A DNA stretch of 64,000 bases from the IMG/VR virus record IMGVR_UViG_3300032069_000007, positions 1 to 64,000 of that record; one strand, written 5' to 3'. Source of the stretch: a virus. The position numbers and the translations under genes were made by a program. Below the pieces are notes generated by a model. That model saw only the letters and a list, made by a program, of their open reading frames with translations. It was not told the origin of the DNA and made no database searches. Below, in pieces: positions 43,297 through 52,076 of this stretch; position 1 is the stretch's first letter, and each line of letters begins with the position of its first letter.

Positions 43297-43547
43297 TGGT
43301 TGCCGGAAGCAGTCTAAGAGGTCTCAGGCCCGTACCGGGGGCACCGGGCCTGGACTGGGCGCGAATGGAAGTGTTTGAGGGCTGGCTCGTGTTTATCACG
43401 GACCAGATGAACTATGTCCAGTTCTTTGTCCCAATGGTCGCCGTACCCTCTGCGAGGTCTGTAGAATTCGCGGACGGCCTCGATTGGTGCCCGCCAGACG
43501 CCGTGACCACCGTGCTCGCTGAGTTGAGAAGGGAAGTGCTGAATTGA
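43296..43547 (+). CDS. small hypothetical protein
   Basis: TGATG coupling. Confidence 0.5.
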   Translation: MVAGSSLRGLRPVPGAPGLDWARMEVFEGWLVFITDQMNYVQFFVPMVAVPSARSVEFADGLDWCPPDAVTTVLAELRREVLN

Positions 43548-43828
43548 CTGTACAATATGACACTCCACCGGACATGATGCCGGAGATCAACCGCCTTCTG
43601 GTGCTCGCCGTCGGGTCGGTGAGGAGGGCGCATTTCGCGCAGGTGTTCCGGGCCGAGGTCGGGCCGCTGTTCGAGGGCCTGTCGAGCCTCCGGTACGACC
43701 AGATCGAGGAAGCGTTCCTGGACCAGATGGAGGCGGCATTCGACCTAGCTGGCAGTGTGCGGGATGCCTTTCAACTTAGAGATCGATTGACAGCGGAGAG
43801 TGACCCACAAGATGGCAACCGTGGTTAA
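43544..43828 (+). CDS. small hypothetical protein
   Basis: Coupled ORF. Confidence 0.5.
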   Translation: MTVQYDTPPDMMPEINRLLVLAVGSVRRAHFAQVFRAEVGPLFEGLSSLRYDQIEEAFLDQMEAAFDLAGSVRDAFQLRDRLTAESDPQDGNRG

Positions 43829-46800
43829 GGTCTTAGGCAGGCAGGGCAACCGGCTCAACATCGCGCGCCGGGAGTGCTCCTGCGAGGTCAAGTTGCCGTT
43901 TGGCCTGCGCTTCACCGACGGCGGCAAGATGCACCGGGTCCACGTCTGCCCGCAGTGCGAGCGCCTCCACGGGTACGAGGACATCCGTAAGGGAACCCTG
44001 CTGCGCAGTCAAGTCGTCTTCGCCCCCGGGTTGCCGCTCTTATCGAAGGCACTCGAGCTCAAGGCCGGCCAGCGCTGGGTAACGCTGCATCCGGATGCCG
44101 AGAACCCAGAAAACTACGTCCACGTCCTGATCCAAGAGCACCCCGATGGCACAGCAAGCGTCATTCGGGGAGCTGAGGGCAAGCTCAACTACCTGCGGCT
44201 GACAAAACTCAAATCGCCGGAGGACTGGCAGGAATCCGGAAAGCGCCTTGCCGAGGAGCGCGAGAGGCGGCGGAAAGAGCGTGAGGCCGCGATGACCGAA
44301 GAGGAGCGCCAGACCACGCACGACGTAGAAGCTGGCATACTGGCCCGCAAGGAGCTGGAGGACGCCAAGTACGTATCGCAGGTGATGGAGGCGCACGGGA
44401 TAGGCGAGTCCGACTGGAAGCTCGAAGAAAAGACCTTGGTAGCCCTGCCGGGGAAGTCACGCGAGATGGCCGAGAAGCAGCACCTCCGCAAGATGGTCAC
44501 GGTGGCGAACAAGCTCGTGGACCGCACGCGCAAGGATCTGCTGGACGCTCACGACCGATTGGCCGAAGCCGAGCTCGGCGATATGCCGCTCGGGGACGTA
44601 GGTATCGAGCGGCCACTCGAGGGCAAAGGAAGCGGGTATATCGCCGCAGTCGAGAACGCGGCAGAGGCGGCTGGTCTAAGCGTCAGGCAGAAGATCGCGG
44701 AGAAGGAGGACATAAGCTGGAGAGGGTTCCTTGACCGAAGCGACGGCGATCCTCTCAAGGCTGCCGAGAAGCTCGCAGCGGTCCAGCGCCTGCACGCAGC
44801 GCTCCGCGAGGTTCGTGAACCGATCAAGGAGCTCAGAACCGCCGGCCTATTGGATAGGCCGCTGAAACCGGAACTTCCGCCAACCGAGAAGATCGCTGAC
44901 ATCCTCGTGGCGCAGAAGCAGCACACCGACTACGAGCGGCAGTACCGACAGGTGAAGGGTGAGATAGAGGAACACGGGGTTCCCAAGGCCGCTCTTGAGG
45001 TCGTGACGGAACTCAGGCCGGAGGAGGTCGAGGAGATCATCAGGGCCGCTGCCGCAAAGCCCTTAGACGAGGAAGCCGCCAAGGACAAGGTCGCCGAGGA
45101 ACTGGCCGAGGATGCGATGCAGCGTGCGGCCGAGAGGCTGCTTGCGACCGCCGACAAGGAGGAGGCCCTTCAGCCACTCCGCAAATACGTGACGATGGGG
45201 CATTACGACAGTTTGAACCGCTCCTGCCTCGCGGCAACGCGCACCCCCCTGCCCCTCGGCCGTCTTCAGGCCGACATCCTGGGACCAGAGGCCAGTGCCC
45301 AGGTGCTCGCCGCCCATCTCAGAGAAACGCTCTCGGACACGGATTACAGGGCAGCACTCCACGGCGTTGCCAACTACCATCGCAACTATCAGCGGCAGGC
45401 AAGCGAACAGGCCCTCCAGTCGTACGCGTCGACAAAGCAGCAGGCCGACGAACTCTCCGAGCGCCCGATATCCGACATCGGGTCTCTTGTTGAGGCACAG
45501 GTTGCGAATGCCGACCGGATTGACCTCGTTGACGAGGCGCGGGAGACTCTCGGCGTGGCGCTCGGACGGCTGGAAGCTACGGCTGCGCTTGTCCAAGCGC
45601 TTGAGCTTCAACACGCACGCAAGGGAGTGCCGGAAGAGCTGCGGGTTCCGCTCGGTGCTATCTCAAATCAGCAGGCCATTGCGCAAGCGCGCGTGCTGGG
45701 ACTCAGCCACCCTGTCATGGAGGAGATGGAGCCGGGGGTGGAACCCGATTACCGAATCGACTCCGACGGCGTCAACAAGTTCCTGACTATCTTGCCGAAC
45801 GGGGCAGCCAAGCTCGTGACGAAGCCCGATCGGGAGCTCGCAGAGAAGCACGCACTCGCAACCGAGATCAAATCAGGTAGGCGGGATCAGAGGCACTGGC
45901 TCCCCGCAGGAATTGTCTCGAGGCCGCAGAGCACATTCGAGGATCCCGAGAAGCGCGCGGTGCAGTTCTCGGAACCGCTCGAACTCAGGCCCAAAATGCG
46001 GTATGCGGAGGTCAACCGCGGACTCAAGCACTATATCGCGCGGCGTCTAGCGGACGGCCAGGACCCTGAGAGCCTGCGTTCCGACCTGCTTTCGGCAGAG
46101 TTCACCGCGGACCTGCCGGACGATCTTCTGGGAGACGGCGGCGGATCCTACTACAAGGCCCTAAGCGACCTCGGCTGGTTCACCTACAACCAGGTAGAAA
46201 ACAAGTCCCCGGAGGGGCTGGAGGCCATAGCCGAACACGCAGTTGAGGAGTACGAACGCGAACACGGGGCGTCTGAGGAGGTCGCCGCCCTCAACTCGCA
46301 GTCCATCCCACTGAAAGACAGCCCGGTGTGCTACGAGGCTCTCTACAGGGCCGTTGCGGCTCACCCCGAAGCCAGGGTAGCGTTCAAGGCTCTCTCCGAG
46401 CTGACGCCGGAGGAGCGCGGGCTGATCCAGCGCTTCTTCTACCGGGTCATGACCGAGGAGAAGTCGCCCCAGGAAGAGGCTGAGGAGAAGAGGCTTACCG
46501 CAAGACCGACCCAGGCCCCGGCTAGGCAGGAGGCGCTGTGGGCCGAGCAAGAGGTGCCCGCAGAGACGACGGAGGCCCGGAAACCCGCCAAGCCAGGACG
46601 CGAGACCCCGTGGACCCGCTACGTCAAGGCGCAGGGATCTGTCCAACATGCCTATGAGAGTGTCCAGGACGTCATGAGAGGCGCCGTCTCGGCGCAGTTC
46701 GCCAAGCACATGGGAGGCATACTTGGCCGCGAGCTGAAGACCGGCAACAAGCGCATCGCAAACTGGGATGACCACCTTCTCGGGCTCGTTTCTCCAGAAC

Positions 46801-49800
46801 GACAACAGCAGCTCCTGGAGGCGCGGCAGGCAGAAATGGCGCGCAAGCACGCGAGGGTCGCGACTCGCGCCCGGGGCAAGTTCGCAACGGAGGAGCGGCT
46901 CGGCATCAGGCGTGAACGCGCGGAGGCCCTCGATCGGGCCATCCGTGGAGCTGCGCTCTCGCTGTTCAAGGAGAAGCCGCTGCCCGCGATCGAGCGGGTT
47001 ACGATCGGCGCCCGGGCGGAGAAACAGCTCCAGTCCATCTTCCCCTACGTTGCCCAGAACTTTGAGGTTGACCGGCCGGTAGACATCCCTCACGATGTAA
47101 ATATGAGCGAAGGTGAGATGGTAAAGCAGCAGCGCGCGGTGAAGCTGATCGAGGGCCTGAAGCGGCTTTCGCTCAACCTGGGCGTCGGCACCGGCAAGAC
47201 CCTGGTCGCGTTGGGCAGCTTCTCAGACCTGCAAGCACGCGGCGCAGTCAACCGCGCCATCTTCGCTGTGCCAGCCAGCCTTACGGCGCAGTTCGGGTGC
47301 GTTCGGGGCGACACGGAACTCTGTGACCCTATCCGCGGACTCACCATGACATTTGAGGAGTGGCTGCTTTCGGGCCTGAGGCCCTTTGTCTGGACCCGGG
47401 CCGCGGGTGGACAAGTAACCATCGAACTGGCGTCTCGCCCATTCCTGAAGGGCCTTGATCGGATGTATCGCGTGGAGACGGACGATGGAGCGTCAATTGT
47501 TGTGACCGCAAAGCATCGCTTCCTTACGCCGAAGGGTTGGAGGCCGTTGTGCGAGTTGCCCGTCGGCTCGCTTGTTTCTTGCGCCGTCGCTCTGAAGCGT
47601 GCAACAAGCGATGCTCACGGTGGCTCCCGAGCAACTGGAGATTATCGATCCGGTTGTCATCCTTTTGGCCATTACGGTGATGAACGAGCTCATCCGGCTC
47701 CAGATAACGGCCAACGTGCTTTTCCATTATCAGGCGGTGCTCGAGATAGTAACCCAGTGAATTTGCCTGAGGGTGGTCCGGCACAAACAACGCGATGTAG
47801 CCAGCAGAACGCCGAATCCGACCTCCCTTCCAGTTGTTTGCCTTTTCGCCCTTGTGACGGTTGGCATTGCCGAGTCTTGGAACGTCGAGCTTCTTCAGGC
47901 GAAGCCGAACCGCATCCTCGCTTGCGCCGTTATCCAAAATGCGGGCTATCTCCGAACACGACCGCCCCTGCTCAGCCAACTCTCGCAACCGCTCGTCGCT
48001 CCACTCGTACCCAGGTGGCCTGCGCCCGTTCAGGCGGAGTTTCCGCATTCGACGAAGGACGGTCGCTTGTGTTGTCCCAAAGTAACGAGCCAGCCAAGAT
48101 AGCGATCTCCCTTCTTGAACGAAGCGGCGGAGGTCGTTCTCATCTATGGAATGAGGTCGACGACCAGTGCGCAGAGCCTCGGAAAGCCCAAGAGCCCTCA
48201 CCCGACGAGCCAAGTAGCTCTGACTCCTCCCGGTCTGCCGTGACATCCAAATGCAGGTTCGATCCTCGGCAACCCAATCCCGCAGTTGCTGATCCGGGAC
48301 GGCGGCGTATTCTGGGAGACTTGGCGGAGTCAGTCCCAATTCAAGCAAGCGCCGCCGAAGCGTGTGCCGTGCAAGGCCGAATTGGCGCTCCATCCAAGCC
48401 AGCGACCTTCCCTGGCTGTGGTAGCGCCTCAATGCCGTTTCATCAACCTGTTTCGTCGGTTGGCTCATGCACCCAGTATAGCACAATTCGCAACATCTCG
48501 GAAGTGGGGCTTGCCCTTGTCTTCGACATCGCAGTTGCACGGACACACAACTACTGGGCTGGCGGGTTCTGGAATCACAATTCGGAAGCCTTGAGGTTCT
48601 ACGAACCTGGCAGGTTCAAATGGTTCGCCGACCCGACGGCCAGCGCTGAGGACCGCCGGGCCGCCTATACTGATCCCGATCGGCAGATATGCGTTGTCAC
48701 CCATCAGGCCCTCAGAGACGACCTCGTCTGGGCGGTGGGCCAGGATCGGTTCGGGGGCAATGTACGAAAAGCGGAAGACTGGATGCGTGCGGCTCCCGAG
48801 GACGAACGCAGGCACGAGGTACGTGCGGCAGCGGAGAAACAAGGGTGGAAGTGGGACATGTGTTTGCCGTACGAGGCTCCGGTGGCGATGGCGGACGGAA
48901 CAACTCGCAGGATCGGAGATCTCGTGGAATCCCGATCAAGCGATCCCGTGCTGTCACTCAACCTTCAGAGCGGTAGGTTGGAGGCCAAGTCAGTGTCCGA
49001 TTGGTTGCGCTTGGAGTGCCCGCACCCCCAACTCTACCGAATCCTCGCGGGCGAAGCAAGCGTGATATGCACAGGTGATCATAAGATATGGACACTCGGT
49101 AGGGGGTATGTCCGCGCTTGCGAGGTGCGAGTAGGTGACCGACTTTTGGCTTTACAACCGACCGACTCTCTGCTAGAATTGGAACACGATACCTTGAACC
49201 GGGGTGACAGAAATGGCAGTGAGGGATATGTTGGTCGGAACGCTTCTGGGCGATGCCTCGATGGGCCAGAGCGCTGCCGGGACGCCGCGAGTAACGATCA
49301 AGCACTGTCCCGCGCAAGAGGATTATCTATTCCACAAGTACGATCGACTGAGATCAATATGCCCATCTGCGCCGAAGTTCGTCAGGAACGGGGGATGGGG
49401 CGGCGACCTCTGGGTCTTTCAGACGAGCTGCCTGGATTGGTTGCGGCAGTACCGGGAGATGATGTGGCGCGACGGGAGGCGTCGGATTGCCGACGCCGTG
49501 AAGGATCACTTGACCCCGGAGGCACTGGGTTACTGGTATATGGACGACGGTTCGCTGTCGAACGGGTGTGCCACACTCAGCACACACAGGTATTTGCGGG
49601 AAGATCAACGGAAGCTGCGATCTTGGATCCGCCAACTGTACGAGATCGAGGTTCTGGAACGCTACGACCGAAGGCACGACCGGTTTTATATGGCGATGCG
49701 CAGAGAGGCGACGCGCCGGTTTGTGGCACTTCTGAGTCCCCACGTGCCGGAGTCCATGAGATACAAGCTGAATGTGCCGAATGCGGAGTTGCTGCCGTAC

Positions 49801-51371
49801 ATAGCGCCAACCCCGGAGGCCCTGCCGGGACGACTGTGCGTGATCTGCGGTCAGCGGTATGCCTTTCAGCAGGTCTGCGACTCTCCGGAATGCAAGCAGA
49901 CCAAGAGGGACTGCGACAACCGGCGTTGGTACGACGCGCACGCTGCCGAGATCTCGGCGAGAACTCACGAGGAGCATCTGCGGAATCTCGGAGAGGGAAC
50001 GTGCGAGGTGTGCAAGAGTCAATTCCTCCGCACCAGTCGCCTCCATGTACGCACGTGCTCGGCGGCATGTCGAGCGGAGTGGAAACGCCGTCGGGCCCTG
50101 GCATGGTACTACCAGAACTGCGATGCCATGAAGCACCAGTAACCTCAGTCGAGTTCACAGATGCGCCTGCGTTTGTCTATGACATAACGGTGGAGGAGAA
50201 CCACAACTTCTTCGGCTACGGCCTCCTCGTCTCCAACTGTCTTGTTGATGAGGGTCAGGATATTCTCCGCCGGCTTCATAAAGCCGACAGCCTGATGCAG
50301 CACGCCATCGACGCTCTGTCATATCACACTCCCTATTACATCTATTCCACGGCCGACCCCGTCAAGAACGACTGGTCGGAAGTCCACGACGTTTTGGCAA
50401 AGGTAGCACCCGACCGTTATCCCGCCGCCAGCCGGGAGGAGTTCCACCGCCGTTACGGAATCGACTGCCTCCAGACTCAGCAGGCGCTCAGACAGGAAAT
50501 GCACCCATTCGCCTATGCCGAGCGTATTCCTCTGGGCATCGTGGCAAGCAGGAGGCAGGAGCCAGTGCAGCTCTCTGCCCCAGAGCAATCCGAGTACGAC
50601 GGTGTCCTCCAGGCATATCGAACCGCGCAGACGGCACGGCGCGCCGGAAAGGTAGACGATGCCGTCCCCGCGTTGCGGCAGATGAACCCCCGTGCCTTCG
50701 AGGGCAAAAACGAAGCCGAACAGCGGACAGAGGCGGGGAGGATGTTGCAGTTCCTCTCGGCCGCCAGAGACTCCGCGCTGGACCGAATCGTCAACGCAGG
50801 TTCGGTGCGCGGGGCAGGCGTGCGCATACCGGCCAAACTTGAAACATTGCACGCGTTCGTGCAGTCACGAATAGCAGAGAAGGGCGCTGGCCTCGTCTTC
50901 GCGCACTCGATAGAGGCGCAGAACCAGATCGCGGGATACCTCAAGAGCAAGGGGATCAAGGTGGGCACCCTCTCAGGGTCTGACCCCGGGGCGAAACGCG
51001 AGCGCACGCGCCAGGACTTTCAGGCCGGCAAGTTTGACGTCCTCTGCCTCAGCGATGCTGGATCGACGGGGCTCAACTTGCAGAGGGCCGCATTTTGCTG
51101 TAACTTCGACTCGCCGTATACGGCGAAGACCTACGAGCAGCGGATCGGCCGCATGGAGCGGCTGGGCCAGACCAACCCTGATATGAAGGTTCTGGATCTG
51201 GTTACGACCACTCCCTACGAGCGCGGCCGGAGGCGACTCCTGGAGCGCAAGGGGAAGCTGCGGGAGGCGCTGACCGCGCCTTACGAAATGCTTGATGACA
51301 CCGATTTGGGGAGAGAAATCGCTGAGGCGCGAAGCAGTGAGATCGAGAAGGCAGTACTTAAAGCCGCTTAG
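43812..51371 (+). CDS. giant SNF2-like helicase protein with two inteins
   Basis: [49 protein letters not shown]. Confidence 0.88.
47524..48468 (-). CDS. HTH-repeat HNH endonuclease encoded antisense within intein 1
   Basis: Four ~45-aa HTH repeats, G....[39 protein letters not shown]. Confidence 0.88.
48475..48503 (-). promoter_or_regulatory. antisense promoter for nested HNH (leaderless)
   Basis: TTCCGA-17bp-TATACT with TG extension; ATG 6 nt later. Confidence 0.65.
49151..49179 (+). promoter_or_regulatory. internal promoter for nested LAGLIDADG gene
   Basis: TTTACA-17bp-TAGAAT with TG extension; SD GGGGTGA at 49201. Confidence 0.72.
49213..50142 (+). CDS. LAGLIDADG homing endonuclease with C-terminal Zn ribbons, in +1 frame within intein 2
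   Basis: [11 protein letters not shown]...[24 protein letters not shown]; CVICG, CEVC...TCSAAC. Confidence 0.9.
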   Translation: MAVRDMLVGTLLGDASMGQSAAGTPRVTIKHCPAQEDYLFHKYDRLRSICPSAPKFVRNGGWGGDLWVFQTSCLDWLRQYREMMWRDGRRRIADAVKDHLTPEALGYWYMDDGSLSNGCATLSTHRYLREDQRKLRSWIRQLYEIEVLERYDRRHDRFYMAMRREATRRFVALLSPHVPESMRYKLNVPNAELLPYIAPTPEALPGRLCVICGQRYAFQQVCDSPECKQTKRDCDNRRWYDAHAAEISARTHEEHLRNLGEGTCEVCKSQFLRTSRLHVRTCSAACRAEWKRRRALAWYYQNCDAMKHQ

Positions 51372-51372
51372 T

Positions 51373-51639
51373 ATGGATCACCAAGAGGTTCGTAAGATGC
51401 TTGGTTGGCAGCGGCAACTAGCCCTTATATTCGACGCGTTCGAGCGTGTGCGTTGGGCCGAGGTCATGCGAGAACTTCGGAGGCTCGTCTCCGGCGGCAC
51501 AAGAATGGCTGAGGTGATGCAGCACTGGGTTATCGTCGAAGATGCGTGCGGTCTACGCCTGATGACGCGCGAGCGGGCGGAGGCCGAGTTGGAGGCTTGT
51601 GTCGTGATTCCGCAGGACTTGTACAGACCGCACGGATAA
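51373..51639 (+). CDS. small hypothetical protein
   Basis: ATG immediately after helicase stop. Confidence 0.5.
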   Translation: MDHQEVRKMLGWQRQLALIFDAFERVRWAEVMRELRRLVSGGTRMAEVMQHWVIVEDACGLRLMTRERAEAELEACVVIPQDLYRPHG

Positions 51640-51669
51640 GATCGTCACTCATTGACAACTGAATAAGCC

Positions 51670-51713
51670 GAACTGTCGAGGACAAGGGGCTTCGAGAGCT
51701 GAACTGTCGAGGA
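51670..51713 (+). repeat. 13-bp direct repeat GAACTGTCGAGGA (31-bp period)
   Basis: Copies at 51670 and 51701. Confidence 0.8.
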
Positions 51714-51716
51714 TAG

Positions 51717-51752
51717 AGCGCTCACCCTCCCGTTGGGGGTGGGCGCTTTTTT
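51717..51752 (+). terminator. intrinsic terminator
   Basis: AGCGCTCACCCTC/GGGGGTGGGCGCT stem followed by T tract. Confidence 0.8.
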
Positions 51753-51770
51753 GTTCCCGGGAGGAGGGCA

Positions 51771-52076
51771 ATGGCAAAGAAGCAAGAGCCACAGGACTCA
51801 ACAGAACGGCTGCGGGGCGCGATGGCGGACTCTGCTGTCCGCCTCTCGCACAGCAGGCATCGTGCGGAGGTCATAGCCGGATGTGCAGACAGGCTGCATG
51901 ACCGGGCCGCAGAGCGGATCGGCGAGCTGCGCCAACTTATCGCTGCGGCCAGGTCTGACGCGGATCGCGAGGCGCTGGAAGGCGAGTACCTGACCTTACT
52001 CGCGGCGCGGGCCCGGGCGGCGCAAGTCAAGGGCCTGGCACAGCGTGACGTAGAGCGGCTCTCGGGGGTGGCGTGA
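51771..52076 (+). CDS. small helical hypothetical protein
   Basis: RBS ggaggagg. Confidence 0.6.
   Translation: MAKKQEPQDSTERLRGAMADSAVRLSHSRHRAEVIAGCADRLHDRAAERIGELRQLIAAARSDADREALEGEYLTLLAARARAAQVKGLAQRDVERLSGVA

Follow-up and report, generated by a model that had tools for sequence, protein, structure and literature searches.

A 64,000-nucleotide stretch of viral DNA (the window), the first 64 kb of the 80,287-base IMG/VR virus record IMGVR_UViG_3300032069_000007 (completeness rating 93%), encodes an SNF2-like helicase whose gene carries two inteins. We find that the second of these, intein 2, very probably combines a protein-splicing element with a separate endonuclease gene, nested in a shifted reading frame and overlapping an open linker of the intein, and that it belongs to a lineage of phage inteins associated with Walker B motifs. 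The element resides in an uncultured, non-actinophage virus from sediment. An earlier note, made from the letters of the window alone, had placed the intein at 48861-50237, directly before Walker B, and both the coordinates of the open reading frame (ORF) and Pfam matches bear this out (Table 1).

The host gene is one continuous ORF across both inteins and is not split at the intein. It contains a Walker A motif (GVGTGKT), motif II (DEGQ) and, in the C-extein, a Helicase_C domain. Removal of the two inteins would yield a product of ~1632-1636 amino acids (aa); intein-less homologues measure 1624-1630 aa, and in one such allele, the database protein P0024, Pfam finds a contiguous SNF2-rel_dom plus Helicase_C. 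At intein 2 the host frame reads ...KWDM / CLPYEAP...GLLVSN / CLVDEGQ..., the insertion point lying between ...GWKWDM and (C)LVDEGQ, three residues ahead of the DE in Walker B/motif II. Pfam Intein_splicing (PF14890) covers intein residues 8-459 (E 4.6e-14), and no endonuclease family was found by Pfam in this frame. The N-terminal splicing region aligns with residues 1-100 of many inteins, T71 being invariant in the alignment with related inteins, and the C-terminal splicing block is common to intein 2, the loci L006, L025 and L051 and the database protein P0086.

In an AlphaFold2 (AF2) model of intein 2, residues 1-100 and 420-459 are predicted with a local distance difference test score (pLDDT) of 80-94 and together form a HINT domain, with the filler between them (residues 102-414) at pLDDT ~30 and without secondary structure. 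The earlier note had described a host frame open for ~330 codons of filler; it is indeed open, with 0 stops, over a filler of ~313 codons. The HINT domain superimposes on the Mtu RecA mini-intein (VIA Z 21.5, 141 residues aligned, 2.4 Å), on Npu DnaB (Z 21.0) and on the Spl (Spirulina) DnaX mini-intein (Z 18.4), the last showing the highest identity in the list of structure matches (31%). This structure search returned 31 chains at Z >= 8, nearly all of them inteins or Hint/BIL-type relatives. Searching solved structures by sequence gave weak intein matches (E 3e-5 to 1e-3), among which the DnaX mini-intein showed no special closeness (E 5.5e-4). An N-terminal Cys and a TxxH block, a C-terminal Asn followed by Cys+1, a HINT fold and a precise insertion absent from homologues are all present. 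These features mark the element at the Walker B motif of this phage SNF2-like helicase as a genuine intein of class-1 type, and intein 2 is predicted to splice.

A second ORF with its own start and stop begins 343 nucleotides (nt) after the start of the intein and stops 95 nt before its end, in the +1 frame relative to the host. Its product aligns with the entire Pfam model LAGLIDADG_2 (PF03161; 1-168/168, E 2.4e-28), and its two motifs, GTLLGDAS (49237-49260) and YWYMDDGS (49531-49554), bring the acidic residues of both into one chain (LLGD, D17; YMDDG, D114/D115). The endonuclease model was built on an alignment of 23 family members, and all residues invariant among them are retained (G16, D17, W111-G116, Y187, K188). 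The modelled core shows the pseudo-dimeric alpha-beta-beta-alpha-beta-beta-alpha fold. Foldseek returned I-WcaI (6x1j) and I-SceI (5a0m/1r7m) as best matches of the core (TM score 0.75-0.76, root-mean-square deviation 2.2-2.3 Å, E 1e-13 to 3e-12), and the intein-borne LAGLIDADG enzymes PI-PfuI, PI-SceI and Tli VMA scored orders of magnitude worse. At the sequence level phmmer relates the nested endonuclease to I-SceI with E 6e-4; the sequences closest to it belong to proteins of free-standing or intron type, 216-240 aa long and at most 37% identical. By these matches the enzyme belongs to the I-SceI/intron-encoded family PF03161, not to the usual intein family PF14528, and it is predicted to cleave DNA. 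The core is followed by a tail of ~120 residues with two Cys clusters (CVIC..CDSPEC, 49837-49893; CEVC..CSAAC, 50002-50070), in line with the two-motif protein with Zn-ribbon tail that the earlier note had read from this frame. No Pfam family matched the tail at E < 0.1. A putative Zn ribbon is indicated by the conserved Cys pattern, and the related nested endonucleases L006, L008, L011, L016, L025, L052 and L055 carry between one and four copies of this module in their tails.

Both frames bear marks of constraint. When the synonymous codons of the nested ORF were shuffled and host-frame stops counted, the shuffles averaged 8.7 stops and 0.05% of them were stop-free (P ~5e-4), against 0 stops in the actual sequence. 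For a host-frame stop to arise, a nested codon must end in T and the next one start with AA, AG or GA, and T-ending codons are used at 0/72 positions before such codons versus 44/240 elsewhere (Fisher P = 7.8e-6). The GC content at codon positions 1/2/3 is 0.59/0.48/0.735 in the nested frame, its tail also keeping the phage pattern, compared with 0.56-0.70/0.43-0.47/0.72-0.83 in the phage's other genes; read in the host frame, the same DNA gives 0.73/0.59/0.48, which is that pattern moved by one position. As the phage GC pattern appears in the nested frame only, we therefore assign protein-level coding to this frame, with the host frame merely kept open, and, with every host-frame stop removed by selection, host mRNA is readable across the entire insert. 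The filler is accordingly a shadow of the nested gene, as with LLVYGRR lying over WYMDDG (V226, G228 and R229 conserved), and this shadow is itself conserved in relatives of intein 2.

The sequence was further checked against contigs of three sediment-metagenome runs (X1-X3), compared with positions 43500-51800. An independent assembler (Logan) produced, from the likely source run, a contig over 8.3 kb with 3 substitutions and 0 gaps, and the run of a second study (X2) contains short contigs identical inside the intein, including 48927-49197 and 50111-50261. Separately, one X3 contig of depth 2.5 lacks a single base at 48924 and another at 48930, within the intein N-domain, and a minor X1 contig carries an extra AGG after 44787; these differences may be errors or variants of relatives.

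The same architecture recurs in other viruses. A profile scan of IMG/VR was performed with the endonuclease alignment, and the best 80 loci were examined. At nine of these 80 the endonuclease ORF lies inside a same-strand ORF of 926-1128 codons, always in the +1 frame, and in eight of the nine host ORFs an Intein_splicing match spans the nuclease. These ORFs encode terminase large subunits, DEAD/Hel308-like helicases and proteins of no assigned function, come from genomes of 34-59% GC, and all nine show 0 host-frame stops versus 5-18 expected. Their inteins sit at Walker B, for instance as VVDE|C...HN|CH and VVY|C...SN|CDE, and share with the window the C-terminal block D-x-x-V-E-x-NHNFFA-x-G-V-L-V-[SH]-N. 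Over WYMDDG, the host-frame shadow LV[YH]GRR is conserved in these relatives, and also in the database proteins P0086 and P0094, the latter a UvrD-type helicase. Among these loci L011 is closest to both the window nuclease (33%) and its splicing domain (26%). Scans of viral contigs with single proteins (C-extein, nuclease, P0094) gave distant relatives or none. Among the 80 best LAGLIDADG_2 loci of cellular genomes (mostly Patescibacteria, Aquificota and others), analyzed as a control, any other frame is open in 2/80; one of these open frames (L092) has no Pfam match, and no cyanobacterial dnaX locus was among the 80.

A cultivated counterpart was found in Xanthomonas phage FoX3 (MT161383.1), whose gp40 (L166:1743-4277) is filed as 'putative DNA helicase'. 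It holds an intein at DE|CH (CIVGDS...GILVHN|CHH) enclosing an unannotated LAGLIDADG ORF of 252 aa (L166:2342-3100), here in the +2 frame, with 0 host-frame stops against 3.2 expected (P = 0.0065). FoX3 is a possible laboratory model.

Related inteins also carry this endonuclease type in other arrangements. It stands in frame in L045 and L049; in L045 (IMGVR_UViG_3300017963_000254), the long ORF around 2501 contains an in-frame LAGLIDADG_2 intein ending ..THRYFASGILVSN|C, and downstream of it lies a second intein-like insertion, CIAGSS...TADHRF...VWDITVEDDESYVAHGF, whose GC-rich, featureless filler of ~400 residues is possibly another hidden endonuclease. In L017 the intein marks the point at which a terminase-like gene is divided into two ORFs overlapping by 4 nt (ATGA): the first (L017:1713-2492) consists of the N-extein and the N-splicing block, and the second (L017:2489-4372) joins in one frame the LAGLIDADG_2 core, Zn-ribbon repeats, the C-splicing block (..DNHTYIANNFIVSN|S) and the C-extein. 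This could be a fractured gene or split intein, the outcome of a frameshift, or a stage between the nested and in-frame forms. The closest relative of the intein 2 splicing domain is P0086 (36% identity by phmmer; 32% over 237 aa by BLASTP, 51% in the C-terminal block; residues 150-570), a member of the same helicase family whose intein sits one codon further downstream (GFQ|C-VDEGH vs WDM|C-LVDEGQ) and whose sequence opens with the last part of a further intein, located at the P-loop. Further homologues of the host helicase contain inteins with long featureless fillers, namely P0029 (at the intein 1 site), P0033 (after TADPVKND) and P0076 (P-loop), and P0048 has a canonical in-frame LAGLIDADG_3 intein at the P-loop. 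The fillers of P0029, P0033 and P0076 probably hide further nested endonuclease genes; from shadow similarity at the protein level, nested genes are suspected in these three helicase homologues as well as in P0086 and P0094.

Intein-free alleles of the helicase gene exist in nature. Run X2 holds a 66-kb contig of a near-identical phage at depth 15.9, from which both inteins are precisely absent, together with low-depth (2-2.8) contigs identical to the inteins; intein 2 is hence polymorphic for presence and absence, with both alleles in one run. Exactly the 459 codons of intein 2 are missing from the proteins P0024-P0028 and from L167 and L169. Outside the insertion sites, P0024 (1630 aa) and the spliced host protein agree at 1149/1152, 75/75 and 308/311 residues, but the patch surrounding site 2 (-13 to +66) has only 40/80 identical residues. 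L167 and L169 are intein-less alleles with 93-94% protein identity, and their DNA agrees with the window at 45/45 nt up to the insertion point, then at 16/24 and 15/36 downstream. Their junction at the intein site, ...GGGACATG|GCCCTCGTGGACGAGGGCCAC..., is a candidate cleavage target. Three intein-less alleles agree on ...ALVDEGHDLLNRKGKPNS... at site 2, from which the window differs, with many T-ending codons. The GC content is 0.55-0.60 over the intein and the 3' patch versus 0.62-0.65 in most of the exteins. The +1 extein residue is Ala in intein-less alleles and Cys in the intein-bearing allele, and motif II, DEGQ (50247-50258) in the latter, is DE(G/A)H in every intein-less relative examined (P0024-P0029, L167, L169, P0086). 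An exact search of viral and metagenome contig collections with the 38-mer spanning the intein-less junction of run X2 found no match. The allele pattern is what homing or gene conversion from a diverged donor of lower GC, with co-conversion of the 3' flank, would leave.

Ahead of the nested gene, the TTTACA-17-TAGAAT and GGGGTGA elements pointed out in the earlier note do exist as sequence matches. The sigma-70-like promoter match lies inside the coding sequence of the intein N-domain, 25-34 nt 5' of the nested start, and is read as a suggestive, putative promoter adjoining that start. Matches of at least 10/12 number 5 in 64 kb on both strands, compared with 1.8 in shuffles, with the proviso that the promoter consensus of the host may differ. 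No shared signal was obvious upstream of the nested starts among related elements. Occlusion of the ribosome-binding site by an RNA hairpin is known for endonuclease genes of phage T4. In the minimum-energy RNA fold of the present region the -10 region pairs with the ATG; a start-occluding hairpin was dropped as a candidate, because 28 of 200 shuffles gave an equally good or better fold (z = -1.06). Production of the nuclease earlier than the helicase, as the earlier note had suggested, is a conjecture.

Several explanations compete with a nested gene in working order. Were the record, a metagenome assembly, to hide a canonical in-frame LAGLIDADG intein behind two compensating indel errors, the in-frame versions in L045 and L049 would offer a precedent. 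The gap-free Logan contig and the identical second-study contigs speak against this, and a true +1 frame would have left ~9 host-frame stops where there are none and codon avoidance is significant. The same layout appears in nine contigs of unrelated samples, and the endonuclease of intein 1 lies on the opposite strand, beyond the reach of indels. A double-indel assembly artefact is effectively excluded, and we regard it as exceedingly improbable that an error of this kind accounts for the layout; the statement in the earlier note that both frames are complete and no frameshift error is involved holds. A recently inactivated relic, with the host frame alone under selection and the intein persisting by vertical descent and ordinary recombination instead of homing, is a more substantial but still unlikely explanation. 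A single copy is available at this identity level, the intein-less allele is in the majority in run X2 (15.9 vs 2-2.8), meaning that the element is not sweeping there, and the tail is poorly modelled. However, the 312-codon ORF is intact and retains all family-invariant residues, both catalytic Asp among them. Its core is modelled with confidence, the GC signature of the phage at third codon positions is kept even in the tail, and relatives have conserved the Zn-ribbon module. Homing with co-conversion would also leave a foreign 3' flank of the kind seen here, in a protein that is otherwise 99.7% identical.

Two further alternatives concern expression and origin. The nested gene may lack its own promoter and be translated by internal initiation on helicase mRNA, the TTTACA-17-TAGAAT match being fortuitous and temporal uncoupling absent; we give this reading nearly the same weight as its opposite. 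It is favored by a possibly different consensus in the host bacterium, by related nested genes without a shared promoter- or Shine-Dalgarno (SD)-like upstream signal, by published cases that invoke only SD motifs, and by the non-significant hairpin. It is opposed by the rarity of matches at this level with a TG extension (5 in 128 kb of both strands vs 1.8), one of which lies 25-34 nt before the nested start, and by GGGGTGA 5 nt before ATG 49213. As to origin, derivation by frameshift of an in-frame LAGLIDADG_2 intein, rather than by invasion of a mini-intein, appears rather unlikely to us. In-frame relatives exist, L017 has endonuclease and Zn ribbons fused to the C-terminal splicing block, and the single frame relation in all nine viral relatives fits one ancestral event of either kind. 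A sudden shift, though, would expose 5-18 host-frame stops, with lethal effect in an essential gene. The nuclease also starts at a codon of its own and is a member of PF03161, not PF14528, and the +2 frame of FoX3 suggests more than one event. The stop problem affects the invasion model too, and evolution may have run in either direction.

Returning to the preferred reading of an intein with a separate nested endonuclease gene, a number of points weigh against it. The penultimate intein residue is Ser, where His is usual. A free-standing gene would have had to enter without first creating host-frame stops. Present-day selection on the nuclease is suggested by the intact ORF, invariant residues and composition, and the Zn-ribbon tail is modelled with low confidence by AF2. 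The foreign 3' patch brings a change of a normally conserved helicase residue in motif II, and the helicase of the DEGQ allele could be impaired. Finally, the allele pattern would be equally compatible with precise intein loss or ordinary phage recombination, with no nuclease action.

On the preferred reading, host mRNA would be read through the whole insert, giving a precursor in which the halves of the HINT domain are joined by a disordered linker of ~310 residues; the intein would then excise itself and rejoin the exteins. An I-SceI-like enzyme with Zn-ribbon tail would be translated independently from its own start, on a transcript either from the internal promoter-like site or of the helicase gene. 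The enzyme would cut intein-less alleles at ...GWKWDM|ALVDEGH..., and repair from an intein-bearing copy would carry over the intein together with its nested gene and part of the 3' flank. A broader proposal, to which we assign an even chance, is that these elements form a widespread Walker B intein lineage in phage helicases and terminases that is undescribed as a lineage. It would comprise at least 10 +1 instances (34-62% GC) and FoX3 with its +2 frame, with in-frame L045 and L049 and split L017 capturing steps from free-standing endonuclease to nested gene to canonical domain. In this proposal the element would be actively homing in this phage, because both alleles occur in one sediment run, and the nuclease would maybe have its own promoter.

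The layout is rare but published, for cyanobacterial dnaX and for actinophage inteins, and the present case is a further example. Gorbalenya (1998), as cited in bioRxiv 10.1101/2025.01.02.630785 and bioRxiv 10.64898/2026.09.14.751524, proposed that the Synechocystis DnaX intein encodes endonuclease ORFs in alternative frames. Phillips, DeSimone and Gogarten (bioRxiv 10.64898/2026.09.14.751524) modelled the LAGLIDADG '+2ORF' of cyanobacterial DnaX inteins, reported low dN/dS in this ORF and alleles coexisting in Microcystis, and propose secondary invasion of a mini-intein. Intein 2 shares with the DnaX intein a same-strand LAGLIDADG gene in a shifted frame between the splicing blocks, a host-frame stretch predicted to be disordered, an SD-like motif before the nested start, and both alleles in natural populations. 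It differs in being part of a phage SNF2-like helicase instead of a cellular clamp-loader subunit, and in showing an I-SceI-family (PF03161) enzyme, two Zn-ribbon repeats, a promoter-like site and a second non-canonical intein in the gene. Gosselin, Arsenault and Gogarten (bioRxiv 10.1101/2025.01.02.630785) list 63 actinophage inteins with non-canonical endonucleases, being in-frame HNH, antisense LAGLIDADG or Vsr-like, and frame-3 EndoVII-like, and argue for invasion by free-standing endonuclease genes. Those of the antisense and frame-3 types likewise have endonucleases off the host frame and an in-frame middle without recognisable structure, and the terminase large subunit and nucleotide-binding sites are favored, as in the lineage described here. 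Their list includes no same-strand out-of-frame LAGLIDADG and no antisense HNH (bioRxiv 10.1101/2025.01.02.630785), both of which occur in the present gene. The present case adds to them a stop-avoidance statistic and intein-less alleles with a patch resembling co-conversion.

Other systems offer partial parallels. Dassa et al. (2009) reported a split-gene version, in which the intein coding region harbors an endonuclease gene of free-standing type that brings its own control elements (PMC2677866). It resembles the present case in concerning a DNA-metabolism gene from phage-like metagenomic DNA and in its overlap with the downstream coding region (PMC2677866); there, however, the host is in two ORFs needing trans-splicing and the enzymes are GIY-YIG or Vsr-like, whereas here the frame is continuous and the enzyme a LAGLIDADG protein. 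L017 resembles this fractured-gene arrangement. I-SceI and I-WcaI share with the nested enzyme the fold, a full-length match to the family profile and both acidic LAGLIDADG motifs, but are encoded by group I introns in the rRNA genes of organelles and have no Cys-rich tail, whereas the present enzyme is nested in an intein and has ~120 extra residues. Arsenault, Gosselin and Gogarten (2025) found a hidden out-of-frame HNH gene in the ShiLan insertion of actinophage DNA methylases (PMC11855218), which is similarly open in the host frame and has a homing-like distribution (PMC11855218). Unlike ShiLan, which has no splicing domain, a complete intein encloses the nested gene here. As expression signals, published nested cases invoke only SD motifs.

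Table 1. Features of the helicase gene and its two inteins (positions of the window; + and - denote strands)
Feature	Position	Strand	Basis or remarks
Host gene, SNF2-like helicase precursor, 2523 codons, uncultured phage	43800..51371	+	ORF list
Intein 1, 428 aa, C...WNHN/S	47298..48581	+	Intein termini
Antisense HNH + helix-turn-helix (HTH) endonuclease ORF, 340 aa	47524..48546	-	Reverse complement of intein 1 filler
Intein 2, 459 aa, host residues 1688-2146	48861..50237	+	Cys1...Ser-Asn459, Cys+1; Pfam Intein_splicing
N-terminal splicing region, intein residues 1-101	48861..49163	+	Cys1 (block A), TGDH at 49071 (block B); pLDDT 81-94, beta-rich
Sigma-70-like promoter match TTTACA-17-TAGAAT, TG extension	49151..49179	+	10/12 matches
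Host-frame filler, intein residues 102-414, ~313 codons	49164..50102	+	Open, unstructured, no family match
Shine-Dalgarno-like GGGGTGA	49201..49207	+	Sequence; 5 nt before ATG 49213, overlaps GTG 49204
Nested homing endonuclease gene, 312 aa, +1 frame	49204..50142	+	GTG 49204 or ATG 49213; TAA 50140-50142
LAGLIDADG core, residues 1-190, I-SceI family, monomeric two-motif type	49204..49773	+	AF2 pLDDT > 90
C-terminal tail, two Zn-ribbon-like repeats CxxCG..F..C..xxC	49837..50070	+	Cys pattern
C-terminal splicing region, ~residues 421-459	50121..50237	+	pLDDT 80-91
3' extein patch unique to intein-bearing allele, ~200 nt	50238..50435	+	~50% protein identity to three intein-less alleles; contains Cys+1 and DEGQ; rich in T-ending codons

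Intein 1 of the same gene is organized differently. Its host frame has 0 stops versus 7.7 expected (0 of 2000 shuffles stop-free), and the antisense ORF matches Pfam HNH_3 (E 3.8e-10) and several HTH families. Like intein 2, it is precisely absent from the 66-kb contig of run X2, and also from P0024. Two different non-canonical inteins in one gene, one of them with an antisense HNH, form a combination outside the published lists compared. Downstream of the helicase gene lie genes for a sigma factor, a prohead protease and a capsid protein.

No new category is opened by intein 2, because its layout is already published for cyanobacterial dnaX and actinophage inteins. Beyond those cases it adds the I-SceI assignment with Zn ribbons, a Walker B lineage with constant +1 frame and stop-avoidance statistics, as well as two non-canonical inteins in one gene and natural intein-free alleles with a one-sided foreign flank. 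It provides a natural example, with statistics, for the view that the splicing domain comes first and the endonuclease invades later, with signs of selection on both frames. Homing and co-conversion can be tested on natural material, since one phage has alleles with and without the intein, the former bearing a foreign 3' flank. Nested genes are missed by annotation, as in FoX3 gp40, and are apparently not rare in viral metagenomes (9 of the best 80 loci). Such genes may be a source of new meganuclease specificities with a predicted accessory Zn-ribbon DNA-binding module.

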